Shown: piece after piece, positions 1-33,862 of the stretch
How positions within the stretch are numbered: position 1 is the stretch's first letter
Layout: the number at the start of each line of letters is the position of its first letter
DNA from: a virus
DNA: 33,862 nt
Strand: one strand, 5' to 3'
IMG/VR virus record: IMGVR_UViG_3300045988_082433
Notes under the pieces: generated by a model
Told to the model about the DNA's origin: nothing
Databases searched by the model: none
Seen by the model: the letters and a program-made list of their open reading frames with translations, nothing else
Position numbers and translations under genes: made by a program

Positions 1-87
1 TACACGGGTCACGTTATTGTATGCGTTTGTAAACATAGTAAGGAACCAGGTTGCCACCAACGCCAGGGCATTTTTAATGTCCTGCCA
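1..87. repeat. Terminal overlap of a circular assembly (identical to 33776..33862)
   Basis: Checked base by base: tacacgggtcacgtt...aatgtcctgcca is identical at both window ends (87 nt). The overlap keeps the tape measure reading frame. Confidence 0.9.
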
Positions 88-13057: not shown

Positions 13058-13978
13058 TTACGCTTCCTCAATGGCATATTCTCTTTTACGCCGCTTGCAA
13101 TCTTCCAACATGGCTTCTAAAATCCCCACTTCCTCTTCATTCAGCCATGTATAATATTTTTCAATCATCTTTACGGCATGAAGCTTCCGGGCATTTTCCT
13201 TTTCCTCTTCGGTTGTGTCGGTATCTGACACATTGGCTTCCCTGGTTTCCTCTTCCTTGGTTTTTCTGCCTTTCTTCTCTTCGGTCATTGCCCTTATTTC
13301 TTCCGCACCCACTCCACCTTTGCTTTCGGATGCCTGGGCAATCTCTTTTTGTGTTTCCTCGTCTGCCTTTGATGCTTCCAGGGCTGCCGTAATGCCCATA
13401 TTGCCTTTCTGGAACTGCTCTTTTACTTCCTGTGTGGCGTTTCCGTCTATGGTGTTTAAGTCCCTTATCTTCGGCACTGTTTCCCCCATGGCCGCCGCCA
13501 CATAGTCCCGGACCCTTTCCCCGGCTTCCAGAATTAAAAGCCCCTCTTTTCTTGCCTGGGTCAAAACCTCTTTCCATTCTGCCGCCTGTGTCATAAGGTC
13601 ATAGTCTGTCATTTTTCTGTTAAACGTATTTCCTACCAAAAGGGCAATTCTAAATTCTGTTTCTGTCATCTGCTTATATCTGCATTTGACTGTTTCAAAG
13701 GCTTCTTTCCCCTCTGCCACAAGAATATTTAATGCGGCCATGCGGCGGTGTCCAGAAATAAGCCAGTATTCCCCGTTTATCTGCCCTAAAACAAGTGGTT
13801 CCTGCAACCCGTCCATTTCAATTCCTGCCGCAAGGTCTTTCAATCCGTCCATGCTGTATTTATTATGTTTTGTCACAACAATGTCCCGGATGCCTAACGT
13901 GATTTCCTGGTATTCGTTGTTTTCCCCTGCTGCCGCTTTGGTTGTTGCATTCATAAGGTCCATGATGTTAAATGCCAT
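13058..13978 (-). CDS. parB: ParB/Srx-domain partition-like protein
   Basis: EPLVLGQINGEYWLISGHRRMAAL is a ParB N-terminal GxRR box. Directly downstream of a ParA ATPase. Acidic C-terminal tail. Confidence 0.75.
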   Translation of the reverse strand: MAFNIMDLMNATTKAAAGENNEYQEITLGIRDIVVTKHNKYSMDGLKDLAAGIEMDGLQEPLVLGQINGEYWLISGHRRMAALNILVAEGKEAFETVKCRYKQMTETEFRIALLVGNTFNRKMTDYDLMTQAAEWKEVLTQARKEGLLILEAGERVRDYVAAAMGETVPKIRDLNTIDGNATQEVKEQFQKGNMGITAALEASKADEETQKEIAQASESKGGVGAEEIRAMTEEKKGRKTKEEETREANVSDTDTTEEEKENARKLHAVKMIEKYYTWLNEEEVGILEAMLEDCKRRKREYAIEEA

Positions 13979-13983
13979 TTTTT

Positions 13984-14787
13984 CTATCTCCTTTCCTCTG
14001 CTGCCAGATGCCCAAACTTTTGCACATATTCTTCCGTAAACGCTTTGTAATCCTGGGCGGCTCCACTCCTTACGCTGTAATGTGTCGGTGTCTGCCTGTA
14101 AAATGTGGCATCCTTGGCCTTTTTGGAATGTCTGATTTTACACTGGAACACATGACAGCCGCTTTTTGTTCTCAACCACCTTTCTGCCGCTTCGCTTGTA
14201 TCTGATTTTTCAAAATCTGTAATGAGTACCCCGGCAATCCTGGCCTTTGGATTTAACGCCCGTATCTGGTTTATCTGCTCCACCAGTTCTTCCAGGCCGT
14301 CCAGGGAATAGGCATCTAAGCGGACGGGTATTATAATTTCATGCGTTGCCACCATAGCATTTATCACATTCATTCCTAAATCCGGCGGATTGTCTATAAT
14401 GCAATAATCATACTGCCCGGAAACTTCATGCAATGCAGATTTATAACGGTCATGCTGTGCGTGTTCTTTATCCGCCTTTATTTCCAATTCCGCCAATTCC
14501 ATGAAATAATTACACGGTACAATATCCAGATTTTCTTCTTTCGTGTCCCGGATATTCCCAGTAATCCGCCCCGTCTTAATAATCCGGCACGCTTCCGCTT
14601 CCCTCTCTCCGTTGTACACTCCAAACATTCTGGATGTATTTCCCTGCTTGTCATTGTCAAACAATAGAACCCTGCTGCCTTTGCGTTTTCTCCGCCTGTC
14701 CCCCTCTGCCAACAATTCAGCCAATGAAACGGCGGTTGTGGTCTTTGCAACTCCGCCTTTTAGGTTGATGACTGATATAATTTTCAT
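13984..14787 (-). CDS. parA: ParA/Soj-type partition ATPase
   Basis: MKIISVINLKGGVAKTTT is a deviant Walker A motif; DNDKQGN and IIDNPP are also present. The track ORF starts at TTG 14814; ATG 14787 is preferred. Confidence 0.85.
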   Translation of the reverse strand: MKIISVINLKGGVAKTTTAVSLAELLAEGDRRRKRKGSRVLLFDNDKQGNTSRMFGVYNGEREAEACRIIKTGRITGNIRDTKEENLDIVPCNYFMELAELEIKADKEHAQHDRYKSALHEVSGQYDYCIIDNPPDLGMNVINAMVATHEIIIPVRLDAYSLDGLEELVEQINQIRALNPKARIAGVLITDFEKSDTSEAAERWLRTKSGCHVFQCKIRHSKKAKDATFYRQTPTHYSVRSGAAQDYKAFTEEYVQKFGHLAAEERR

Positions 14788-14810
14788 GTTTTCGTTTCGC
14801 TCCTTTCGCT

Positions 14811-15683
14811 TCAATTCCGCACCATACGGGCGTATATGTAAAATGCCGCATTGATACCGTTGTATTTAACCTCTGCATCCAGAAATTCATATCCTGGATA
14901 TGCCTTTTCTAACTGTTTTTTTAATGTGTCAAAATTCTTTACCATTCGTTCCACCTGGCTTTTTTTGAATTTTGAATAACTTCGCTTTGGTTCCGGCGGC
15001 TTTTTGAGGTTCTTTGACGGGCACCACCGCTTTGTCCCATGTGGGTTTTGTGTGATATATGTTGCCAGTCCTGTAAGTAAAAATTTATCATCCGGCATGA
15101 TCCGTCTTGTGTTTGGTCTGTCACACTTTCCCCATAATTTTTCTAACTGGTCCCTGTCTATTCCGTCCCCAGAAATCAGAATGTGGAAATGCGGACGCTT
15201 GTACCCGTCAAATGCCAGGATATAAATATACTTTGCATTTTCCAATCCTGCTTTCTTTCTCCTGCGGTTGATACGCTTAATGAAATTCGTTATGTCCTTT
15301 CTTGCCCGTTCTACGCTGTCCGGCAAACAATCATCATTCCACCCAAACGTGGCCCAAATATCCCCTTTCCCAAAATTGATATTTGCCAGGCGTATGATAT
15401 ACCGCCTTGCGTTCTTGTCGTTTAGGTTGCTTTGTGACGGCCTGGTTTCTCTCTTTTTCTTCGTCACTGGCATATCCGCTTTATTCGTGAATGACGGGTA
15501 CACCTGGGCTTCCAAAAGGGTTGTTCCACTCTTTATGTTCTGGGACTTCGTTGTTGTTGTGCGATAAAGGCACGCCACCTTTCCGTCTTTCATCAACTTT
15601 TCCAATTCCCATTCTTCTAACTTCTCGCATTGCTTCTGGTATGCTTCCTCATAATCGTAATTATCATAAAAGCGTTTCTTCAT
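14811..15683 (-). CDS. HUH-type rolling-circle replication initiator-like protein
   Basis: 290 aa. KRPHFHILISG is an HUH motif and GLATYITQNPHG is a candidate catalytic Tyr motif. First gene of the rep-parA-parB operon after a 402-bp intergenic region. Confidence 0.5.
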   Translation of the reverse strand: MKKRFYDNYDYEEAYQKQCEKLEEWELEKLMKDGKVACLYRTTTTKSQNIKSGTTLLEAQVYPSFTNKADMPVTKKKRETRPSQSNLNDKNARRYIIRLANINFGKGDIWATFGWNDDCLPDSVERARKDITNFIKRINRRRKKAGLENAKYIYILAFDGYKRPHFHILISGDGIDRDQLEKLWGKCDRPNTRRIMPDDKFLLTGLATYITQNPHGTKRWCPSKNLKKPPEPKRSYSKFKKSQVERMVKNFDTLKKQLEKAYPGYEFLDAEVKYNGINAAFYIYARMVRN

Positions 15684-21582: not shown

Positions 21583-22617
21583 TTATGCCAGTTTCCTTAT
21601 TTCCTCTTCAAAGAGTTTTGCCGCTGTTTGAAACTCAAAAATCCCCCTTGGATAATTATTTATCCAGGTTTCTATATATTCAATGTCCCTGTCCTGTTTT
21701 TCGTCAAAATCTTCCCCTTTTGGAATATGGCGGCGGATTAGTCTATTTGTGTTTTCATTGCTTCCACGTTCCCAACTACTGTATGGATGACAGTAAAACA
21801 GAAATGTTCTTTTCTCTCCTGGGTGTATTGCTGACTTTTCCAGGCCGTCACAATCCGAAAATTCCACGCCGTTATCAACCGTAATGCTTCTGAATATGTT
21901 TTTGAACATATCGCCCCATTTCCGTTCTATTCTGTCCAGGGCATCCACCACGCTTTCTGCTTTCTGGTCCTGCAATTTTACTATTATTTCATTTCTGGTC
22001 TTTCTCTCTGTCAAAACAAGCATACAGGACTTTGTTACCCCTCTTTTGCCTTTCACGGTGTCCATTTCCCAATGTCCAAACACTTCCCGGTTTTCCACCT
22101 CTTCCGGGCGTTTTTCAATGCTCTGCCCTGCTGCCGCCCGTTTCTGTACCTTTACTTTTTTATTGTGTTTCTTTCTCTTTCCTTTCACTGGCAAGTCCTT
22201 ATTTGTCAATTTCAGAAAAATGCCGTCATCAATATACCTGTAAAGTGTCCGCACACTTATGGTTGTTTTAAATTCAATTCCGCTTTGTGCCACTGCTGCC
22301 AGTGCGGCTTCCGGGCTGTATTTATCATTCACAATCTTATTTTCTATATACTCCGCAAGCGGCAAATCATTTCCTATTTTAATACTTCGCCCTTTTCCCT
22401 GGGCGTTCCAGTCATGTGCCTTTTGCCCTAAATCACTGCTGTAACGTATCTCTTCTGTGTAGTCGCTATTTCTGTGTGTATAGGCTCCCCTTTTTCTTTC
22501 TCTCCAAACGGTTGTTCTGTGTACTCCTAAATACTTTGCTACCTCTTCCGGCGTATGCCCGGAATTTAACATGGTTTCCATTTTAATTCTATCGCTTTGT
22601 GTTAAGTGTTTTCCCAT
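21583..22617 (-). CDS. IS30-family DDE transposase
   Basis: 344 aa with an N-terminal HTH, HWEMDTV (D), ITVDNGVEF (D) and the IS30 signature PYSSWERGSNENTNRLIRRHIPKGEDF (E). Confidence 0.9.
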   Translation of the reverse strand: MGKHLTQSDRIKMETMLNSGHTPEEVAKYLGVHRTTVWRERKRGAYTHRNSDYTEEIRYSSDLGQKAHDWNAQGKGRSIKIGNDLPLAEYIENKIVNDKYSPEAALAAVAQSGIEFKTTISVRTLYRYIDDGIFLKLTNKDLPVKGKRKKHNKKVKVQKRAAAGQSIEKRPEEVENREVFGHWEMDTVKGKRGVTKSCMLVLTERKTRNEIIVKLQDQKAESVVDALDRIERKWGDMFKNIFRSITVDNGVEFSDCDGLEKSAIHPGEKRTFLFYCHPYSSWERGSNENTNRLIRRHIPKGEDFDEKQDRDIEYIETWINNYPRGIFEFQTAAKLFEEEIRKLA

Positions 22618-24680: not shown

Positions 24681-25958
24681 TTATTTCAATAACTGATTTA
24701 CTTTGTTCTGTACTGCCTGGTAATCATACCCGGCGGCTTCCAGGCGTTCTTTTCTCTGTGGGTTGTTTCCCCACTTCCCGGCAATTACTTCTTTGGCTAC
24801 CTCTGCAACGCTCTTCTGTGGTTTTGCATTGCCGTTCAGTATCGCATTTACCTGGTTCTGCACCGTCTGGTAATCATACCCGGCGGCTTCCAGGCGTTCT
24901 TTTCTCTGTGGGTTGTTTCCCCACTTCCCTGCAATTACTTCTTTGGCTACCTCTACAACGCTCTTTCCAGGCTGTGTGGTCCCGGTTCCTGCTTCGCTGT
25001 CATACTTCGGCACACCATACCCACGGATATAACGGCCATTTACGGAAAGCGTGCGGCGTTCCACGGCATTGTTCTTGTTTCCCTCAATAATTGTAATGCT
25101 GCCGCCGCTTACGCTCTCCACAATGCCCACATGGTCCGGCCACCCGGTATTGTCCCCGGTTCCCGTATCGTCCCAGTCATAAAATACAATATCCCCAGGC
25201 TTCGGCGTTCTGCTGTCACTCTCCTGCCATTCTCCCAGTTTTTTGAATAATTCAATCATCTGTCCGCAACCACATTCCGTTGGAATAATGCTTGTCAGTC
25301 CACATTTAATGGCTACGGCAGAAACAAAGGTTGCACACCACGCATCTGTGTATTTTACTTTGTACCCTCTTGCAAGCGGTCTGTGGGCATTGTACACATC
25401 AATGATTTCCCTGTGCGTTCCATTTGCTTCTTTTCTTCCAATCCAGGCCCTTGCCTGGCTTAATACGGCACTTGCTTTTTTTGCCATGCTCTCTTCCCCT
25501 TTCGTATCATACTTTTGCAGATTGTGCTGTGTAACAATCCTCATGGTATTTTCAACGTATTTGCTGCTTGTTGCGTACCCGTCCGCCTTAATGGTTTTAA
25601 GGTATTCTTCCGGGTCCGTGATGCCTTTCAAATTCTGATAGCGTTTTAACTGGATAAATTCAAAATATCCTTTCACACCCTCTTCCATGTTGTCATACAC
25701 CCGGAAATTATCCTTAATTTGTGTAAGGGTTCCCGGCGTGTATTCTTCCATGGTTTTAAGGTTTACGCTCTTGCCGGTCCATTTTGTCCCACATTTCAGT
25801 CCAAAATAATTATGGTACACGGCGGCCAGTTTGCTTTCTCCCCAACCGCTTTCAAGTATTGCCTGTGCAATAATAGGGCTATGTACTTTAATCCCGTACC
25901 CGGCAGCATACTTTTTCACATATCCGGCAATTTGTTTTATAAATTCCTGTTTTTCCAT
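24681..25958 (-). CDS. Endolysin: glucosaminidase + CHAP/NlpC-like amidase + 2 x CW_7 (Cpl-7-type) wall-binding repeats
   Basis: AQAILESGWGESKLA..NYFGLK (glucosaminidase). DAWCATFVSAV..GDIVFYDW..HVGIV (Cys/His CHAP). Two copies of VAKEVIAGKWGNNPQRKERLEAAGYDYQ.VQN.VN. Confidence 0.85.
   Translation of the reverse strand: MEKQEFIKQIAGYVKKYAAGYGIKVHSPIIAQAILESGWGESKLAAVYHNYFGLKCGTKWTGKSVNLKTMEEYTPGTLTQIKDNFRVYDNMEEGVKGYFEFIQLKRYQNLKGITDPEEYLKTIKADGYATSSKYVENTMRIVTQHNLQKYDTKGEESMAKKASAVLSQARAWIGRKEANGTHREIIDVYNAHRPLARGYKVKYTDAWCATFVSAVAIKCGLTSIIPTECGCGQMIELFKKLGEWQESDSRTPKPGDIVFYDWDDTGTGDNTGWPDHVGIVESVSGGSITIIEGNKNNAVERRTLSVNGRYIRGYGVPKYDSEAGTGTTQPGKSVVEVAKEVIAGKWGNNPQRKERLEAAGYDYQTVQNQVNAILNGNAKPQKSVAEVAKEVIAGKWGNNPQRKERLEAAGYDYQAVQNKVNQLLK
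24696..24966. repeat. 150-bp-period tandem repeat encoding the two CW_7 modules
   Basis: 24717-24816 and 24867-24966 differ at 2 positions. Confidence 0.9.
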
Positions 25959-25962
25959 ACCC

Positions 25963-26199
25963 TTACGCTTCCTCTTCTGTCACTTCCACCGTTGTTTCCA
26001 CTCCGGCGTTTGCCTGGTCTGTAAGCCCCTCGCCAATGATATAGGCCACAACGGATGCCCCGGCCATAATGAGTGCCGTTACCTGTGTGGCGGTGTTCTC
26101 TGCTCCGCCAGTCGCAACAATCATCATGGAAACAAAGGATGCAACCGCCGTCCATAACTTCCGGCTTGTCAACTTTCTTACCCAATCTTTTTTTTTCAT
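25963..26199 (-). CDS. Holin (2-TM phage holin family)
   Basis: 78 aa. KKDWVRKLTSRKLWTAVASFVSMMIVATGG..ALIMAGASVVAYIIG with an acidic C-tail. Immediately upstream of the endolysin. Confidence 0.6.
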   Translation of the reverse strand: MKKKDWVRKLTSRKLWTAVASFVSMMIVATGGAENTATQVTALIMAGASVVAYIIGEGLTDQANAGVETTVEVTEEEA

Positions 26200-26228
26200 T
26201 GTGCTTTCTCCTTTCCGCTTGTCTGCTG

Positions 26229-26543
26229 TTACTCATAAAGTCCTTTTATGCCCTGTTCTGTTAAGAAGTCCTTTTGCTCATGCTTAATTTTCCGGGTGTA
26301 TTCCAGGGCGGCTTCTGTTTCCCCGTTTGCGTGTCCGTTTTTCAGTGCGGTGGCTGCCGCTTCTCCCAGGGCTATGGAAGCCATAACACTTTTAATCAAT
26401 AAGACTTCACTTTTCTGCCGCACTTTTTCTTTTTCTTCCTGTTCTCGCCTTTCTCTTTTCATCTTTTCTTCGACAAGCCAAAAACAAAAAGCGGTCACAC
26501 CGCTTGGGATGCTCATAGCAAGCAAAAGTGTTTGTAAATCCAT
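26229..26543 (-). CDS. Holin-like / lysis accessory membrane protein (N-terminal TM + charged coiled coil; BhlA/UviB-like, tentative)
   Basis: LLLAMSIPSGVTAFCFWLVEEKMKRERREQEEKEK. First gene after late-promoter-like copy 3. Confidence 0.35.
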   Translation of the reverse strand: MDLQTLLLAMSIPSGVTAFCFWLVEEKMKRERREQEEKEKVRQKSEVLLIKSVMASIALGEAAATALKNGHANGETEAALEYTRKIKHEQKDFLTEQGIKGLYE

Positions 26544-26579
26544 TTTGTTGTCCTCTCCTTTCTTTTTGCCCTTATGTGC

Positions 26580-26612
26580 ATCATACCCCTTGCCGTGTTC
26601 AAATTCTGACCC
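26580..26612 (-). promoter_or_regulatory. Late-promoter-like element copy 3 (GGGTCAGAAT-N17-TATGAT)
   Basis: Sense strand GGGTCAGAATTTGAACACGGCAAGGGGTATGAT between the RT stop and the lysis genes. Confidence 0.45.
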
Positions 26613-26627
26613 GGTTATTTCTTCACG

Positions 26628-27680
26628 CTATGCCGGAATTGCAATGCCGCTTTCCGTTTGTTCCCATTCCCAGAATAACAATTCATATTCAATGGCCTTT
26701 GTAAGGTGGTAGGTGTCAGCGTGTCCCATATGTCCTAATCTGCTTTGATATTTCTTTTCAAACTCTACACGTTCCAATTCCCCGGCTTCTAATTGTTTTA
26801 CGTTCTTCTTTAACTTCCGCACGGATGCTTTGCGAACCTTTTTATATTCCGGGTGGTGGATATATCCGCAAAAATCAATCCCGTTTCCGGCATATAAAAT
26901 GGTACTTTTGGGATTTATTTGTAACTCCATTTCTTTTTCTAAAAATTCTTCTATCCGTTTCCGCCATTCTTTCAACTGTTCCAGGTCTGCGGAAAGTATT
27001 ATAAAATCATCCATATATCTGATGTAATACTTTGCGTGTAAGGTATGCTTCACAAACTTGTCCAGTTTATTCCCATATACATTGGCAAATAACTGGCTTG
27101 TAAGATTTCCAACTGGTATTCCTACACCGTCCGGCAGTATTCCGTTTTTATCAATAATACCATCCATTAAATACAGGGCTTTCTTGTCCCCTATGTATCG
27201 CCTGTTTTCTTCTTTTAATTTATCGTGTGGAATTGATGCAAAATATTTGTGTATATCCCCTTTAAATCCATAAAGCCGCAATCCCTCTTTTATCATCAAT
27301 TCATACATCCATTGTGATAACTGTTCACTTGCTGCGTGCATCCCCTTTCCCTCACGGCAAGCATAAGAATGATAATAAAAGCCCTGTTCAAATACTGGCC
27401 CTATGATATTTACAATCATGTGCTGCACTACTCTGTCATAAAACGGCAGTGCCATGATTAACCTTTCTTTTGGTTCCCACACTTTAAATATGGTGTATGC
27501 TCCCTGGGTGTATGTAAGGTTTTTCACTTCCTCGCACGCTCTCAAAAGTTCCTCTTCCTTTGACATAGAAAAAGCCAATACTTCTTTGCTGTACCGCTTG
27601 CATTTTGCGGCCTTTCTAAAAGAAGTATTGGCATTGTCAAAGGTGTGCATTTTCTCATGTAATCCTTTAACTGTTTTCAT
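26628..27680 (-). CDS. DGR reverse transcriptase
   Basis: GIPVGNLTSQLFANVY (DGR-type motif 4), YIRYMDDFIIL (YxDD). About 350 aa, adjacent to TR and avd. The track ORF starts at TTG 27701; ATG 27680 is preferred. Confidence 0.9.
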   Translation of the reverse strand: MKTVKGLHEKMHTFDNANTSFRKAAKCKRYSKEVLAFSMSKEEELLRACEEVKNLTYTQGAYTIFKVWEPKERLIMALPFYDRVVQHMIVNIIGPVFEQGFYYHSYACREGKGMHAASEQLSQWMYELMIKEGLRLYGFKGDIHKYFASIPHDKLKEENRRYIGDKKALYLMDGIIDKNGILPDGVGIPVGNLTSQLFANVYGNKLDKFVKHTLHAKYYIRYMDDFIILSADLEQLKEWRKRIEEFLEKEMELQINPKSTILYAGNGIDFCGYIHHPEYKKVRKASVRKLKKNVKQLEAGELERVEFEKKYQSRLGHMGHADTYHLTKAIEYELLFWEWEQTESGIAIPA

Positions 27681-27844
27681 AATTGCCCTACCAATTTTCA
27701 AATACTCTTCTACTAAAAGGCGGTGCCTTTGTTATTTTGTCCAGGTGTGCCCCGGAACGGGAAAACCGTCTGACTTATCGAAAAAAAATAGATAAATCTT
27801 TGCCAGTAACAAATAATGTTTCTGTGCCTGTAATATACTGATTA

Positions 27845-27972
27845 GTCACACACGCACCACACGCCAATGTTCGTGTTCACGTTCCACGGGTAATTGTTGC
27901 AATTGACGGCCCGTGAACCGCAATACACGCCGTTGTTCCAATTGCCGCCGCCAATGAGGGCGTGCAAGCCAG
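27845..27972 (-). repeat. DGR template repeat (TR)
   Basis: 128-nt gapless match to 28489-28616 with 16 mismatches, all at TR adenines (sense). In the VR frame it contains nine AAY codons. Confidence 0.92.
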
Positions 27973-28010
27973 GAAAGGCCCGGTGCGAATTAACAGTTTC
28001 CCCATATTTC

Positions 28011-28427
28011 TTATTTATCCGGCTTCCATGTTCCGGCCTTTACCGCTTCAATTATTCCGTTTAGCGTACTTCCTATTGCTGTTATGTGTCTGCTTATGAC
28101 CTCATAACGGTGTTTGCTCATTGCTTTATAATTCATTCCCTGCAAATTCAAATCATACGAAAGCCGCACCAGGGTTTTTATAAACTGCAACTCTATATCC
28201 GCCGCATATAGGTGGCTTTTTGTTCCTGTTTTCTTGAAACGGATTAAATCCTTTAACATTTCAAATATGGCCGTCTTAATCTGCGTCTGCAATGCGAACT
28301 TTTCAAACTTTGGAAATTGTGCCAATATTGGATAAATATATAAAAGAAATTCATATGTCTTTTGGTATGCTTTCATACTTTCCATATAGGCATCAATTTG
28401 TTTTTCTGGTTTCTTTTCTGCCGCCAT
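28011..28427 (-). CDS. avd: DGR accessory variability determinant (Avd, four-helix-bundle protein)
   Basis: 138 aa. YQKTYEFLLYIYPILAQFPKFEKFALQTQIK...LVRLSY is typical of the Avd / 23S-IVS four-helix-bundle family. It lies between the target and TR. Confidence 0.85.
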   Translation of the reverse strand: MAAEKKPEKQIDAYMESMKAYQKTYEFLLYIYPILAQFPKFEKFALQTQIKTAIFEMLKDLIRFKKTGTKSHLYAADIELQFIKTLVRLSYDLNLQGMNYKAMSKHRYEVISRHITAIGSTLNGIIEAVKAGTWKPDK

Positions 28428-28447
28428 TATTCATTTTCCTTTCCATG

Positions 28448-28474
28448 TTGGGGTTGGGCTTTCGCCCACCCCAA
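28448..28474 (-). promoter_or_regulatory. GC-rich hairpin with GAAA loop just downstream of VR (DGR homing-enhancer-like)
   Basis: Sense strand TTGGGGTGGGC-GAAA-GCCCAACCCCAA forms 11 bp with one bulged A. It starts 14 nt after the VR end, between the target stop and the avd start. Confidence 0.6.
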
Positions 28475-28479
28475 CGGGA

Positions 28480-29580
28480 TTACAGACTGTCACACACGCA
28501 CCACACGCCAATGCCCGTGTCCACGCCCCACGGGCAACTGCTGCAACCGACGGCCCGTGAACCGCAACACACGCCGTAGAACCAATAGCCGCCGCCAATG
28601 AGGGCGCGCAAGCCAGTGCTTGAATACATCCACGCTTGACCGTAACCGCCGCCAAATATATCATACCAGGCACCAGATGCCGCCGTTGGGTCATGCATCA
28701 ACTCATTCAACCACTTCCAGACATTTCCCACCAGGTCGCAAATATTTAATGCACTGACAGCATTTGCAATTTTCCCCACTGCCGTTCTGGCCTTATTGGT
28801 TTTCGCTGTCCACCCATTTGCATTGGAATTGTCAAGGCCCTGTGGGCTTCCGTCTGCTGCCACTGTAAATTCCATGTAATCCGGCAACCTTTTTCCTACA
28901 CGTCTTGCACGTTCTCCGGCAATATACCAGTTAAGTCCCTCGGTTCCTGTAATCGGTGTGCTATTATACACGGACTGTAAGCCGTTGGCTCCGTCATCAC
29001 TGGAAAGGTAAATGTCCCCCCATAACGCATTTCCCAGGTAGACCATGCCGGACGGGTCGCATTTTGGACGGTGTTTTGTTGTCCATACGGAATTTGGCAG
29101 AATATCCACACGGGTATTACTTTCCCAACCGCTTCCCCTTACGGACCCGGAAGTGTTTATGGCTCTTCCGTGTTCGTCTGTATTACGCACTCTTCCATAG
29201 TGGAATCCGCCAATTTTCCTTGTATTGGTATCGTCCCAGGTTTCCCCGTCCGGGAATGTGGAATTTAAGGAAATCAAATAAACTTCATCCTGGCTGTTTG
29301 TTCCTGGGTCGCAAATATATATATAATAATCCTTTCCATGTTCAAAATCTGCCCCCTGATCCAAGTTTGCTTTTGTTAATGCTTTTTCTACTGTCTTAAA
29401 TACTGCGTTTTCTCCCACGGCAATGACGCATCCGGCCAGTACGGTAACTTCCCCCTTATTGGTGTACTGTATATACTGTTTTTCCGGGGCTACAATGTCA
29501 GAAACGGCGGCCATTTTGGCAACTGTGATTTTTGCCCTTTCATCCACCATGTTTTCATCATAAATAAATAATCTGCTCAT
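28480..29580 (-). CDS. DGR target protein with C-terminal C-type-lectin/FGE-sulfatase-like variable domain (probable receptor-binding protein)
   Basis: 366 aa. RLPDYMEF...GNVWKWLNE...GGGYW..G..CGSR....C.....W......IG.WC is the Mtd-like CLec scaffold, carrying VR. It is the last gene of the tail module. Confidence 0.85.
   Translation of the reverse strand: MSRLFIYDENMVDERAKITVAKMAAVSDIVAPEKQYIQYTNKGEVTVLAGCVIAVGENAVFKTVEKALTKANLDQGADFEHGKDYYIYICDPGTNSQDEVYLISLNSTFPDGETWDDTNTRKIGGFHYGRVRNTDEHGRAINTSGSVRGSGWESNTRVDILPNSVWTTKHRPKCDPSGMVYLGNALWGDIYLSSDDGANGLQSVYNSTPITGTEGLNWYIAGERARRVGKRLPDYMEFTVAADGSPQGLDNSNANGWTAKTNKARTAVGKIANAVSALNICDLVGNVWKWLNELMHDPTAASGAWYDIFGGGYGQAWMYSSTGLRALIGGGYWFYGVCCGSRAVGCSSCPWGVDTGIGVWCVCDSL
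28489..28616 (-). repeat. DGR variable repeat (VR), 3' end of the target gene
   Basis: See TR. It encodes LRALIGGGYWFYGVCCGSRAVGCSSCPWGVDTGIGVWCVCD and ends 6 nt before the stop codon. Confidence 0.92.
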
Positions 29581-30050
29581 TATGCCAACTCTCCTTTCAT
29601 TGCTTCCACTTCCTCTTCTGTGATGCCCAGGCGGTCATAAAATGTCACTTCTGCCGGGATGCCAATTTCTGTGCTGCCCATGTTCAGTGCCTTTGAAATA
29701 GAAAGAACGGTGTGGACAATATCATTGTTCTGTCCTGTTTCCAGGTTTTCTGCCGCTGTCTGTTCTTCTCCCGTGTCTTTATTGATATGTACGATTTTAA
29801 TTCCCTGTACAGTCGGATATACTGCCCCATTTTTAATTTTCTGCCCCTCTTCTACCTCTGCACAATACATAATGGTTACGGTCTTTCTATCCTCTGATAA
29901 TTCAATGACCGGGCACATAATCCAGTTCTGATTTTCCAGTTTTTCAACTGCTGCCAACCAATCTTCTTTTTCCAGTCGGCCACGCTTTACCAATTTGAAC
30001 GTGTTTACCAGGTCTGATTTTGTTTTGATTACTTTTGGAAATCCTTTCAT
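29580..30050 (-). CDS. Hypothetical tail-module protein
   Basis: 156-aa ORF translationally coupled (TAATG) to the DGR target gene. Confidence 0.5.
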   Translation of the reverse strand: MKGFPKVIKTKSDLVNTFKLVKRGRLEKEDWLAAVEKLENQNWIMCPVIELSEDRKTVTIMYCAEVEEGQKIKNGAVYPTVQGIKIVHINKDTGEEQTAAENLETGQNNDIVHTVLSISKALNMGSTEIGIPAEVTFYDRLGITEEEVEAMKGELA

Positions 30051-31117
30051 CTTCTCTTTTCCTCACTTTCTTTTAATAAATAGGTGCCAATATAGTTTCC
30101 TATGTAAGCCATGTTTGTTCCCTCACGCAAAGCAATGGTTATGGTGTGCATAAGGTCCGTATTGTCTGCCTTGAATTTCTTTGGTATCGCCATAACGCTT
30201 TCCATGTTGCTTTCCACGGTGTATTCCCCGGCTTCAGTAACATAAAATCCAATTCCGCTTTTCGTAACCTCTGCCGTCTGTACGGTCCCCGTTGTGGTAT
30301 TTGTAAGGGTAATGGTAATGGGCGTTGTGATGCTCTCCAAAAAATATTCCATGTACACTTTGTACGCCATGTTGTGAACTTTGGTTTTTAAATCATCAAT
30401 CTGCAACTGTAATTTCCCGGCCACATCCCCGGCAAGTTCTGTTCTCTTTTCTTCAAACCATTTGTTCCATTCTGCTGCCTGTTCATCCATAAACCCTTGC
30501 GTCAGATTTTCATACTGTTTTACAAAATTGGCGTGGTCTTTTTCCATTGCCTTTTTCTCTTCTGAAAACCATTTGCTAAACTGGGCGTTCCACTGTGAAA
30601 AGTCCAATTCTTCAAACTGGGAACCAATGAAGCCGCACACGGTATCATCCGGCCTTTCATCTGTTATGTTTGCCTGTGTAATCTCCACGGCTCCTGCCGG
30701 AATATAAATGCGTGCCAGGCTCTTTTCCTGGATAACATCATTGTTTAAAAGTTCCGGGGCCTGCGGATTGCTTGAAAAAGCCCCCTCTAAAACATAAATG
30801 CTTGGTTTTCTTTCTGTTTCGTCATTCCTTAACACAATGCGGTCAATCCTCGGAAGTGTACCGCTTGCCTGGCTTAACGTGAGGGTCAGCGGTGCCGTAT
30901 TGTGTATGGTGTGCAAATTGATGTATGCGTACCCTGTCCGGGTGCCGCCGTCCACCACCACTTCCATGCTTCCGCCTGCTGCCGTGACCTGTAAATGCCC
31001 ATAGGCCACGCCCTCTTTGTAAAACGGGGCTTTGTCCTCGTTCATATCCTGGCCGTTGTACATATGCTCTTTATCGTTTAGGTCTGTGGCATTGTAAAAA
31101 AATCCTCTAACTGCCAT
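30047..31117 (-). CDS. Putative tail fibre / baseplate structural protein
   Basis: 356 aa. The N-terminus (YNGQDMNED..FYKEGV..LQVTA..MEVVVDGG..GYAYI..LPRIDRIVLR) resembles a common phage fibre/structural N-domain. Synteny agrees. Confidence 0.45.
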   Translation of the reverse strand: MAVRGFFYNATDLNDKEHMYNGQDMNEDKAPFYKEGVAYGHLQVTAAGGSMEVVVDGGTRTGYAYINLHTIHNTAPLTLTLSQASGTLPRIDRIVLRNDETERKPSIYVLEGAFSSNPQAPELLNNDVIQEKSLARIYIPAGAVEITQANITDERPDDTVCGFIGSQFEELDFSQWNAQFSKWFSEEKKAMEKDHANFVKQYENLTQGFMDEQAAEWNKWFEEKRTELAGDVAGKLQLQIDDLKTKVHNMAYKVYMEYFLESITTPITITLTNTTTGTVQTAEVTKSGIGFYVTEAGEYTVESNMESVMAIPKKFKADNTDLMHTITIALREGTNMAYIGNYIGTYLLKESEEKRR

Positions 31118-33145: not shown

Positions 33146-33862
33146 TTACCCCCTTTGTACTGCTAAAATCATGCTTCTTGTCTGTAATCTGGTTTGTCTT
33201 GCTACTTCATAAGGGCTTAACGCTTTTGGGCTTGAAATATTGATTGTCTGGCTATATCCGCCCTTTCCGCTTCCTGTGTTTTCCAGACTTCGGTTTCTGG
33301 CTGAACCTGTCAGCGGCGTAACAACTGCCTTTCCGTTTACCATGCTTAAAAGTTCCGGTCCGGCTTCTGCTACCATGGCCGTTCCCTCTCGCAACACTCC
33401 GCCCTTTGCCAAACGTGGCAATGATAATTCCCCGATACTTCCCAGGGAAACTCCTGGTATTTTATTGATAATTCCAATTACTCCATTTATCATGCGGATA
33501 AACTTATTTACAACGCCCTCTATTGTGGCAAGACAGGAATTGATTGCCGACTTAAAGGCATCCCCTACCGCTGAACCAATTTTTACGCCAACATCCACAA
33601 AACAGCCTTTTATCTTATCCCATAAACCAGAAAAGAAAGAAGTCACATTTGCAAAGGCGTTTTTAATATTGGTCCATGCGTTCTGAAACTGCGTGCCAAA
33701 CCACTGCGGCACTGCTGCCAGTGCGGTTTTAATTTCTGTCCACCTGGCACCGAACCAGGAACCAATTGTCGCAAATACACGGGTCACGTTATTGTATGCG
33801 TTTGTAAACATAGTAAGGAACCAGGTTGCCACCAACGCCAGGGCATTTTTAATGTCCTGCCA
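33146..33862 (-). CDS. Tail tape measure protein, C-terminal part (joins 1..2364 across the circular junction)
   Basis: The open frame runs to the window end, and its phase matches 1..2364 through the 87-bp overlap. Stop at 33146. Confidence 0.85.
   Translation of the reverse strand, partial: WQDIKNALALVATWFLTMFTNAYNNVTRVFATIGSWFGARWTEIKTALAAVPQWFGTQFQNAWTNIKNAFANVTSFFSGLWDKIKGCFVDVGVKIGSAVGDAFKSAINSCLATIEGVVNKFIRMINGVIGIINKIPGVSLGSIGELSLPRLAKGGVLREGTAMVAEAGPELLSMVNGKAVVTPLTGSARNRSLENTGSGKGGYSQTINISSPKALSPYEVARQTRLQTRSMILAVQRG

Follow-up and report, generated by a model that had tools for sequence, protein, structure and literature searches.

The window, meaning the whole stretch of 33,862 nucleotides analyzed here, is the genome of a siphovirus, circular and complete at about 33.8 kb. 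Its siphovirus features are a tape-measure ORF of ~1000 codons, Dit, and a Sipho_Gp37-type tail protein. The host is a gut Lachnospiraceae, and the phage looks temperate. Together, the tail proteins and the Lachnospiraceae hosts back the assignment to a Gram-positive-type siphovirus made in a preliminary description of this DNA. The minus strand carries a cassette in the order: target gene; avd; template repeat (TR); and reverse transcriptase (RT) (Table 1). Tail genes lie on one side of it and lysis genes on the other, a placement and order kept in relatives. The order within the cassette, and the ORF coordinates of target, avd and RT, had been described correctly.

Table 1. Features of the cassette, listed 5' to 3' along the minus strand.
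Feature	Position	Strand	Basis or remark
Target gene, 366 aa, Mtd-like receptor-binding tail protein	28480..29580	minus	Pfam, phmmer, PHROG, Foldseek
Variable repeat (VR)	28489..28616	minus	codons 322-364 of 366, within the C-terminal 45 residues of the target
DNA hairpin/cruciform, candidate target-recognition element	28447..28475	minus	DNA fold, compensatory changes
avd, accessory variability determinant, 138 aa	28011..28427	minus	NCBIfam, Pfam bAvd, PHROG 3206
5' strand UGGGGAAACUGUU of TR-bracketing RNA duplex	27992..28004	minus	RNAalifold, covariation
TR	27845..27972	minus	non-coding; contains 26 adenines and, read in frame with VR, nine AAY codons
Spacer (Sp) RNA between TR and RT, 164 nt	27681..27844	minus	fold and family covariation
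SL1, analogue of Avd-binding stem-loop	27824-27804	minus	in spacer
SL2	27798-27772	minus	in spacer
Candidate primer strand AGUCA	27775-27771 (priming A 27771)	minus	inferred, invariant
Stop-duplex 3' strand GACGGUUUUCCCG	27770-27758	minus	in spacer
SL3	27756-27740	minus	in spacer
A-rich single strand	27739-27728	minus	in spacer
Diversity-generating retroelement (DGR) RT, 350 aa	26628..27680	minus	phmmer, Pfam RVT_1, PHROG 1423

The start of the target gene is translationally coupled to an upstream ORF (29580-30050) through a TAATG overlap. Its product matches Pfam mtd_2nd (8e-33), the C-type-lectin-like FGE-sulfatase family (1e-7), and PHROG 11262, "tail protein" (5e-68). Against BPP-1 Mtd (1yu3), the protein aligns over residues 30-366, nearly its full length (phmmer 1.6e-17), and the family profile reaches 2e-29 in a match that spans the VR domain. 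The positions at which Mtd-I1 and Mtd-M1 differ align with five variable codons of the window target. PDB matches were obtained with the full-length protein and with its longer C-terminal half, and none with the 67-aa VR-domain peptide alone. An AlphaFold2 model built with 35 homologues has a pLDDT of 57.6 overall and <50 for residues 168-366, the C-terminal lectin-like half, and was therefore not used to site VR residues on the surface. Foldseek with this low-confidence model returned Mtd variants only, in a match driven by the N-terminal half. At 90%, the target clusters into a group of 4,580 distinct sequences; a Clostridium scindens protein in this group has been named "phage major tropism determinant" by NCBI. 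The exact window protein is not in the protein-to-contig records, yet it is present among its 90% cluster members.

The span of the RT in Table 1 is that given by its ATG start, and the frame is open as far as a TTG at 27701. Both motifs named earlier as DGR-type, GNLTSQ and YMDD, are present, the first within IPVGNLTSQ; they fit the DGR-clade patterns (I/L/V)GxxxSQ and YxDD. The RT matches Pfam RVT_1 (3e-19) and PHROG 1423 (1e-113). Its top PDB match is 8ub7, which we take to be the BPP-1 RT, bRT (phmmer 2.5e-49, residues 6-329). Group II intron RTs follow at 2e-17 or weaker, and 8ub7 stands ~30 orders of magnitude above any group II intron or retron RT in the PDB comparison. Of the bRT residues with roles taken from the BPP-1 RNP literature, K29, F66, R74, I76, D138, G182, Q187, and D215/D216 are kept, and I181 is Val. 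The RT fails to reach the curated cutoff of any group II, retron or DRT model in NCBIfam (group_II_RT_mat, 114.5 vs 300 bits; retron St85 RT, 42 vs 235; Drt3a, 63 vs 200). It sides with the BPP-1 DGR RT and not with group II intron or retron RTs, in keeping with its earlier assignment. No second RT was found within the window. An Rfam scan of the window gave no RNA family, and so no intron or retron RNA; a tRNA scan was empty.

Avd scores above the cutoff of NCBI's curated DGR-Avd model (NF033474 DivGenRetAVD; 9e-26, 90.2 bits vs 80), which upholds its earlier identification. It also matches Pfam bAvd (8e-23) and PHROG 3206, "Avd protein of DGR" (7e-27).

A repeat search of the window recovers TR and VR as a single 128-nt direct repeat with 88% identity. 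Compared base by base on the minus strand, the two copies align without gaps and differ at 16 positions. All 16 mismatches lie at TR adenines, which is 16 of the 26 available (12 A>G, 4 A>T; hypergeometric p = 5.7e-14). This independent search and realignment reproduced the ungapped, adenine-only alignment of the preliminary description, including the two ends, at which the homology stops sharply. A mismatch at any other base was looked for, and none occurs. The nine AAY codons, the translation of TR in the VR frame, and the 12 changed VR residues (R,Y,F,Y,C,G,S,S,C,G,D,G) were likewise exact on re-derivation. TR itself lies between avd and RT, outside every ORF of the minus strand, and no further TR-like copy was found within the window. 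In the 366-aa target ORF, all 16 mismatches fall in codon position 1 or 2, and none of the TR codons can mutate to a stop. TR adenines occupy positions 1 and 2 in the nine AAY codons and in seven others; this stop-free design permits about 6e14 protein variants, and puts about 1e14 receptor-binding variants within reach.

The pattern recurs among related genomes. A complete TR/VR pair is present at 57 loci, and adenines account for 700 of the 770 mismatches there. In the 68 distinct TR/VR pairs, substitution affects 47.8% of A sites vs 1.4% of other sites, a 35-fold excess, and each TR adenine in positions 10-105 is substituted in 26-77% of loci. The entropy at A columns in 70 loci is 0.14 bits for TR vs 1.48 for VR, and the A columns of the family TR are more conserved than its other columns. 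Among 15 sampled members of the 90% cluster of the target, TR-A codons make up all 11 of the most variable columns (entropy 1.72 vs 0.13 bits). Family-wide, substitutions are 63% A>G and 37% A>T or A>C; the bias may reflect selection, or an RT preference unlike that of BPP-1. An exact-motif scan of viral contigs for more TR copies gave 28 loci, most of them already in the sample, and megablast of the cassette against 50,697 GenBank phage records gave no match.

Two relatives, L002 and L003, are 98-99% identical to the window. Here, 13.3% and 10.2% of VR bases differ from the window (17 and 13 positions, respectively), as compared to 0-1.4% in avd, TR, spacer and RT. Each VR difference is in a column with an adenine in the relative's own TR, which is the outcome sought when the preliminary description proposed comparing related phage genomes for VR-only variation. 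The L003 TR is identical to that of the window. The L002 TR contains one point change, G95>A, and the same change is found in the L002 VR; on comparison of the repeats, it reads as a natural marker transferred from TR to VR. The part of the target outside VR is 2.1% and 5.4% diverged in the close relatives, vs about 1% for flanking genes. At the population level, such comparisons indirectly indicate that one-way, adenine-mutagenic transfer from TR to VR occurs in this lineage.

The RNA around TR is also conserved in architecture. RNAalifold pairs UGGGGAAACUGUU with spacer positions 27770-27758 in a 13-bp duplex that brackets TR. The 5' strand is located in the avd-TR gap, 7 nt past the avd stop and 19 nt ahead of TR. 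All 13 positions are paired in 16 of 16 sequences, and two columns are compensatory (AU>UA in 4 sequences; AU>GC in 2). The L030/L092 clade carries an additional compensatory variant, GGGGCAAC with GUUGC...CCC. The single-sequence fold of the spacer has z = -2.7. On family alignment A2, from which the structure was derived and on which it was also scored, 97.2% of cells are paired vs 88.2% when shuffled and ≤58% in slid registers, and 13 pairs have double changes vs 7.6 expected. SL1, SL2 and SL3 each contain 3-5 pairs changed on both sides. With a TR-deleted construct, RNAalifold also paired CGCACC (27987-27982) with GGUGCG (27858-27853); this helix was set aside as nearly invariant and a possible artefact of the TR deletion.

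Priming of cDNA synthesis may involve the 3' end of TR. A candidate pairing joins UGACU (27848-27844) to spacer AGUCA (27775-27771). Both strands are invariant in the 16 aligned representatives, and for this reason covariation does not bear on the duplex. By analogy to BPP-1, the cDNA would be primed from spacer A27771, and TR G27849 would be copied first. TR A127 is substituted in 1 of the 68 distinct pairs. This immunity is consistent with the proposed geometry, and may equally be explained by selection on the invariant Asp364. The candidate primer strand shares bases with the 3' arm of SL2, a stem-loop supported by covariation, so that the primer duplex and SL2 are unable to coexist. In sequestering four of the five predicted primer bases, SL2 may be a conformational gate on cDNA priming, one without a BPP-1 counterpart.

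On the other side of the transfer, a hairpin begins 13 nt past the last base identical between TR and VR. It has a 12-bp GC-rich stem (5' arm 28475-28464; 3' arm 28459-28447) and a GAAA loop (28463-28460), and its DNA fold has an energy of -14.8 kcal/mol (z = -4.5). Among the 13 distinct versions in the family, 6 of 10 pairs carry compensatory changes. Twelve of these versions have a GAAA or GGAA loop; that of L003 is AAAA, which departs from the GRNA consensus, yet the L003 VR is diversified. Lacking a downstream T-run, the hairpin is not terminator-like, and that role was ruled out. In BPP-1, the experimentally defined element has a 7-10 bp GC stem and a 4-nt GRNA loop, and is located 4-34 bp from VR (PMC3240598). 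The window hairpin matches it in GC stem, GAAA loop, and distance from VR.

The structural and evolutionary data, which comprise a DGR-clade RT, Avd, A-only mismatches, a 3' VR, a GRNA-loop hairpin, and A-site-restricted variation of VR, bear out the earlier proposal of a mutagenic-retrohoming DGR. We consider it very likely that the cassette is a complete BPP-1-type DGR. As part of a best explanation that as a whole merits the same high confidence, the DGR diversifies the predicted ligand-binding tip at the C terminus of the Mtd-like target. The element is a textbook case of a class that is very common in gut phages.

The proposed reaction would begin with an RNA that covers the avd-TR gap, TR and spacer. 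No minus-strand promoter-like site was found within 26100-30200, cassette included, and this RNA would be part of the minus-strand tail/late transcript. Next, UGGGGAAACUGUU (28004-27992) would pair with GACGGUUUUCCCG (27770-27758), looping out TR, as supported by covariation. The three spacer stem-loops, with stems also supported by covariation, would form a scaffold that binds RT-Avd through the protein contacts expected from the BPP-1 cryo-EM RNP. Spacer AGUCA would then pair with UGAC+U of TR and prime the cDNA. The RT would copy TR faithfully save opposite adenines; the A-only pattern reflects this outcome, and the chemistry is assigned by homology. Finally, the cDNA would replace VR, guided by the VR 3' flank and the GAAA-loop hairpin, a function suggested by BPP-1 mutagenesis. 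The resulting repertoire of variants could allow the phage population to keep pace with changes in the surface receptors of its host.

An alternative is that the element is a DGR by descent that is now inactive in the window genome, with VR diversity left by past activity of the lineage. This would fit the lack of a promoter-like site on the minus strand within 26100-30200 and the loss of adenines from the TR copies of two relatives, which indicates that decay happens in the family. Against it, the RT is full length with conserved catalytic and fingertip residues, Avd is above its curated cutoff, all 26 TR adenines are retained, and the hairpin and RNA elements are intact. In addition, genomes only 1-2% diverged already have different VRs, one of them with a transferred TR marker, which places activity very recently on the genome's own timescale. 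We therefore give inactivity a slim chance; judged from these sequence features, the DGR of the window is probably active.

The two relatives with altered TRs are L001 and L054. In L001, the RT of which is 4 nt from the window RT, 7 of 8 TR substitutions are at ancestral adenines, and in L054 the count is 9 of 9; normal TR evolution in their clade avoids adenines. A search for the mutated L001 segment elsewhere found only L001's own contig. These copies may represent real TR mutagenesis or an assembly/amplification chimera. If they are real, mutagenized cDNA sometimes homes into TR, or VR converts TR, and either would erode the element's own mutagenic capacity. The idea that TR is not fully protected in this lineage, and the related one of SL2 as a priming gate, appear unlikely.

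The TR/VR pair could in principle be an ordinary partial duplication or gene-conversion tract that owes its divergence to selection acting on the tail protein and has nothing to do with the nearby RT. Tail fibre genes are recombination hot spots, and the non-VR part of the target is itself somewhat more diverged than the flanking genes. This reading does not account for an ungapped alignment with every mismatch on one base type, for the repetition of the A-specific pattern in dozens of independent loci, or for the co-occurrence of RT, Avd, hairpin and RNA elements. Nor would ordinary drift make a non-coding TR most conserved at its A columns. It is effectively refuted, with a negligible residual probability.

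Equally negligible is an RT from a group II intron, retron or DRT, with A>G-rich changes made by deaminase-type editing: the best NCBIfam E-value is for the group II intron RT/maturase model (5.8e-33), Drt3a also matches, and 12 of 16 changes are A>G, but these scores are far under their cutoffs, the PDB comparison favors DGR RT, intron and retron RNAs are absent from the window by Rfam, the 350-aa RT ends where its group II intron RT matches (427-599 aa) go on, and deamination is unable to produce the A>T or A>C changes that make up 4 of 16 in the window and over a third family-wide.

The closest known system is the BPP-1 DGR (mtd-avd-TR-brt). The two systems share: the order target, avd, TR, spacer, RT; a target homologous to Mtd over its full length, in which VR occupies the extreme C terminus and the variable codons align with those of Mtd; an AAY-rich TR; and Avd. 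The closest solved relative of the window RT is bRT, with key residues kept save for I181. BPP-1, a short-tailed phage, infects Bordetella, whereas the window phage is a siphovirus of Gram-positive gut Lachnospiraceae. Protein identity is low (about 25% for the target in the Foldseek alignment), and the 3' end of the window VR lacks a pure G/C run.

The order of elements in the BPP-1 RNP, including an avd:Sp "cPRT stop" duplex, has been described (bioRxiv 10.1101/2023.10.23.563531). The window spacer has the same order: stem-loop; primer strand; duplex with sequence upstream of TR; short stem-loop; and A-rich strand. BPP-1 priming pairs TR U118 with Sp A56, followed by template G117 and then Sp G57; the candidate priming site of the window has the same U:A pair, template G, and following G. 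In contrast, the upstream duplex strand is inside avd in BPP-1 and in the avd-TR gap here. The spacer is 140 nt in BPP-1 and 164 nt in the window, which has the extra SL2 overlapping the proposed primer strand, and the cDNA start is 17 nt from the TR 3' end in BPP-1 as compared to a predicted 4 nt here.

The conceptual gain is small, as the class was founded on DGRs that act on Mtd-like tail proteins, and gut phages often carry them. What the element offers in practice is a DGR that is both compact and complete, has the BPP-1 layout, resides in a Gram-positive gut phage, and has dozens of close and distant relatives already sequenced; no published description of this phage lineage was found in the literature. 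Covariation in the family supports, in a distant lineage, the RNA architecture solved for BPP-1, namely the TR-bracketing duplex and stem-loops, and the element yields a specific prediction of the priming nucleotide. The host group takes in Clostridium scindens-like Lachnospiraceae that convert bile acids, making receptor-switching phages relevant to gut ecology and phage engineering.

Other DGRs, in phages and prophages of the human and mouse gut, have been detected through A-specific TR/VR mismatches and comparison of near-identical genomes (PMC8008677, PMC11318856). Hankyphage and Quimbyvirus of Bacteroides, and the Avd- and RT-containing prophage LM41phi3 of Clostridium clostridioforme, share with the window a structural target of C-type-lectin type beside tail genes. 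The Bacteroides phages differ from the window in phage lineage and host family, and Quimbyvirus has a frameshifted RT and two targets, where the window has one RT ORF and one target.

A repeat finder run with no prior information returned a single long direct repeat for this region, a 128-nt pair of copies at 88% identity. On the minus (coding) strand, TR and VR align without gaps, and each of their 16 mismatches falls on an A in the RT-adjacent copy (12 A>G and 4 A>T). Given 26 adenines among the 128 bases of TR, the probability that all 16 would fall on A is 5.7e-14. The homology stops sharply at both boundaries proposed in the preliminary description, whose coordinates, TR translation and list of changed residues all proved exact on re-examination, as did its claim that TR and VR differ only at TR adenines. 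All 16 changes occur at codon positions 1 or 2 of the 366-codon target ORF. Read in the VR frame, TR has nine AAY codons, and in another seven codons the first or second base is A; mutation of these codons cannot reach a stop codon and gives access to ~6e14 protein variants. Neither a further TR-like copy nor a second RT was found within the window.

Features of the cassette and of its genomic surroundings, in window coordinates
Feature	Coordinates	Strand	Description
RT	26628-27680	minus	350 aa; Pfam RVT_1; PHROG 1423, 1e-113
SL3	27756-27740	minus	predicted spacer stem-loop (RNAalifold)
SL2	27798-27772	minus	predicted spacer stem-loop (RNAalifold)
SL1	27824-27804	minus	predicted spacer stem-loop (RNAalifold)
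TR	27845-27972	minus	128-nt repeat copy, RT-adjacent
Avd	28011-28427	minus	NCBI curated DGR-Avd model, 90.2 bits (cutoff 80); Pfam bAvd; PHROG 'Avd protein of DGR'
Post-VR hairpin	28475-28447	minus	GTTGGGGTGGGC-GAAA-GCCCAACCCCAAC; 13 nt past last shared VR base, just beyond stop codon
Target	28480-29580	minus	Pfam 'Mtd second domain', 8e-33; FGE-sulfatase/C-type-lectin-like domain
VR	28489-28616	minus	128-nt repeat copy, within target
ParB-like	13058-13978	minus	plasmid-like maintenance module
ParA/AAA_31	13984-14814	minus	plasmid-like maintenance module; 6e-42
Replication initiator	14811-15683	minus	plasmid-like maintenance module
IS30-type ORF	21583-22617	minus	344 aa; HTH_38 and rve integrase core; PHROG 4646 'transposase', 6e-137
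Endolysin	24681-25958		Glucosaminidase, CHAP and two CW_7 repeats
Endolysin repeat	24696-24815 / 24846-24965		120-nt direct repeat

The best PDB sequence match of the RT is 8ub7, a 328-aa reverse transcriptase that we take to be the Bordetella phage DGR enzyme bRT (E 2.5e-49, residues 6-329); in the same search of all PDB sequences, the best group II intron RT reached 2e-17. NCBIfam holds no DGR RT model, and none of its group II, retron or DRT models reaches cutoff on this RT, all falling far below. The alignment to 8ub7 retains K29, F66, R74, I76, D138, G182, Q187 and D215/216, with I181 replaced by Val. In the bRT-Avd-RNA structure, these residues are described as touching the template, the dNTP and the metal (bioRxiv 10.1101/2023.10.23.563531).

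Residues 30-366 of the target align with BPP-1 Mtd crystal-structure sequences (1.6e-17), and a target-family profile of 35 homologues matches BPP-1 Mtd at 2e-29. The Mtd-I1/Mtd-M1 differences, at positions 346, 350, 359, 360 and 366, align with variable codons 334, 338, 347, 348 and 354 of the window. Foldseek matches for the AlphaFold target model comprise five Mtd variants and nothing else; confidence in this model is limited to the N-terminal half, the lectin-like half having pLDDT <50, which leaves any 3D placement of the variable residues tentative.

Variation among relatives follows the same pattern. Scanning IMG/VR with the RT gave 275 relatives, and a one-genome-per-species scan gave 418, with 80 loci kept from each. 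Of 770 mismatches in the 57 viral loci whose TR/VR pair is complete, 700 lie at TR adenines, the remainder mostly at positions 1-5, at which the boundary of the repeat moves between clades. The substitution rate in 68 distinct TR/VR pairs is 47.8% at A positions and 1.4% at non-A positions. The 26 A columns have an entropy of 0.14 bits in TRs and 1.48 in VRs; for the remaining 102 columns, TRs and VRs share a value of 0.34. Distinct sequences number 4,580 in the 90%-identity cluster of the window target and up to 12,503 in sister clusters. Among 15 sampled members of the former, the VRs are all different and the 11 most variable target columns are all TR-adenine codons (mean entropy 1.72 vs 0.13 bits).

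The preliminary description had asked for VR-only variation in related phage genomes, and this comparison supports the DGR interpretation. Two contigs, L002 (IMGVR_UViG_3300029633_000159) and L003 (IMGVR_UViG_3300023504_000105), share 98-99% identity with the window; their avd, TR, spacer and RT differ from it at 0-1.4% of positions, whereas VR differs by 13.3% and 10.2%, respectively. Every differing VR column has an A in the relative's own TR. In L002, TR carries the change G95>A (window 27878), the same A is present at VR position 95 (window 28522), and VR differs from its own TR at only 3 adenines. The shared G95>A is nature's counterpart of a marker-transfer experiment, and L002 looks like the outcome of a recent, lightly mutagenised homing event in which the marker moved from TR to VR. 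Separately, the part of the target outside VR (window 28617-29580) is 2.1% and 5.4% diverged from L002 and L003, with flanking genes at about 0-1.4%. This higher divergence suggests that the receptor-binding protein undergoes recombination or selection over and above what the DGR does.

Changes concentrated at adenines are also seen in two TR copies. The TR of L054 (IMGVR_UViG_3300014778_000012), a related contig, differs from its sister TRs at nine positions, all of them A (p = 2.5e-7). In a second contig, L001 (IMGVR_UViG_3300029796_000033), whose RT differs from that of the window by 4 nt, 7 of 8 differences in the TR copy at positions 77-204 are at ancestral A (p = 4.8e-5). This mutated copy sits at the TR locus, because its flank is the avd 3' end, and the segment has no second occurrence elsewhere in IMG/VR. 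Typical TR divergence in this clade spares adenines (11 of 92 differences), which are otherwise the most conserved TR columns. The mutated TRs may be chimeras that arose in assembly or amplification, or may stem from gene conversion of TR by VR or from off-target homing into TR. Either of the latter two, if true, would amount to TR erosion.

The BPP-1 cryo-EM RNA provides an order of elements for comparison: the upstream (avd) strand; TR; the Avd-binding stem-loop; the primer strand, whose last base is the priming A56; two further nucleotides; the spacer half of a duplex formed with the upstream strand ('cPRT stop'); a short stem-loop, with unpaired adenosines after it; the single-stranded 'thumb ring'; and the long RT-binding stem-loop (bioRxiv 10.1101/2023.10.23.563531). 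Here, 16 representative family 'mini RNAs', each joining upstream flank, TR ends and spacer, were aligned. RNAalifold predicts a 13-bp duplex of UGGGGAAACUGUU (28004-27992) with GACGGUUUUCCCG (27770-27758), paired at 13/13 positions in 16/16 sequences. Two of its columns are changed on both sides, AU>UA in four sequences and AU>GC in two. A distant clade outside the alignment has GGGGCAAC with GUUGC...CCC and an inserted GAAA-capped hairpin, a further compensatory version. Three spacer stem-loops are also predicted, and CAAAAUAACAAA comes after SL3. SL1, often UACG- or UAUG-capped in relatives, recalls the UNCG-capped Avd-binding stem-loop of BPP-1. With the structure derived from the same alignment as these values, paired cells amount to 97.2%, against 88.2% when shuffled and <=58% in slid registers, and 13 pairs have double changes, against 7.6 expected.

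The duplex also places a candidate primer. Directly 5' of its spacer strand is AGUCA-G, invariant in 16/16 aligned representatives. The AGUCA would pair with the invariant TR end UGAC and the first spacer base U (27848-27844), setting spacer A27771 opposite TR U27848. The next template base would then be TR G27849, with G27770 coming after A27771 in the spacer. In BPP-1, mapped priming has Sp A56 paired to TR U118, G117 as first template base and a specific requirement for G at Sp57 (PMC6182149). Consistent with a cDNA start at G27849, A127 (27846), the only TR adenine 3' of this base, is substituted in 1 of 68 pairs, and the 25 adenines upstream in 26-77%. Selection could explain this near-immunity equally well, as A127 lies in the codon for Asp364, which is invariant in the protein family. 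Because the primer duplex is itself invariant, covariation is silent on it. In the proposed priming arrangement, the primer strand overlaps the 3' arm of SL2, making primer duplex and SL2 mutually exclusive; that this exclusivity acts as a regulatory gate is speculation.

Beyond the VR lies a hairpin whose DNA fold has an energy of -14.8 kcal/mol (z = -4.5), with 0/200 shuffles folding as well. BPP-1 retrohoming needs a GC-rich 7-10 bp stem that is capped by a 4-nt GRNA loop and lies 4-34 bp beyond VR, in which the stem works via structure and the loop via sequence (Guo et al.; PMC3240598). Among 13 distinct family versions, pairing is kept despite stem sequence changes, which are compensatory in 6 of 10 pairs, and the loop is GAAA or GGAA with the sole exception of AAAA in L003. 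That variant, at the equivalent of window 28463, hits a position reported as sequence-critical in BPP-1; the VR of this 98%-identical relative has diversified all the same. A terminator was also considered; with no T-run behind it, the hairpin is not terminator-like. In the related contig L012 (IMGVR_UViG_3300045988_107758), the VR 3' end and stop codon are partly duplicated behind a degenerate hairpin copy, which may be the scar of an aberrant cDNA integration.

Window 1-87 is identical to 33776-33862, making this a circular assembly whose complete genome measures about 33,775 bp (~33.8 kb). A minus-strand tape-measure ORF of about 1000 codons runs from about 2367 over the circle junction to 33146, and plus-strand ORFs 671-1354 and 1727-2371 are its shadows. 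The minus-strand order is: tape measure, Dit, Sipho_Gp37-type tail protein, PHROG 1220 protein, 156-aa unknown, target, avd, TR, RT, PHROG 9428 protein, holin and endolysin. Terminase, portal and major capsid protein are encoded as well, and the gene layout is that of a siphovirus. The 120-nt direct repeat in the endolysin gene coincides with a duplicated C-terminal peptide repeat, the site of both Pfam CW_7 cell-wall-binding repeats. The IS30-type ORF may have come in as an IS element or may encode a DDE-type phage integrase; beside it, at 22.6-24.6 kb, L003 aligns in fragments only.

Among the window ORFs scanned, none looked like a tyrosine or serine integrase, so the phage may persist as a phage-plasmid. 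The genome carries a plasmid-like maintenance module; related DGR cassettes, by contrast, occur on large contigs of bacterial genome assemblies. The closest cellular RT copies, at 82-86% identity, are in Lachnospiraceae genomes (e.g. Petralouisia muris, Acetatifactor and mouse-gut MAGs). A search for GenBank phage records close to the cassette found none.

Taken together, tests of DGR membership place the cassette among DGRs, and it appears to work like that of BPP-1. Sequence identity to BPP-1 is low, and host phylum and virion type differ. Further differences are architectural: the avd-TR gap, not avd itself, holds the upstream duplex strand; the spacer is 164 nt with an extra stem-loop, as compared to 140 nt; and the cDNA would start 4 nt from the TR end, rather than 17 nt. 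DGRs are already documented in gut phages and Lachnospiraceae prophages (PMC8008677; PMC11318856). In addition, NCBI labels a Clostridium scindens protein from the same 90% target cluster, on a 1.8-Mb contig, 'phage major tropism determinant'. For both reasons, this DGR is a known kind of system and of modest interest.
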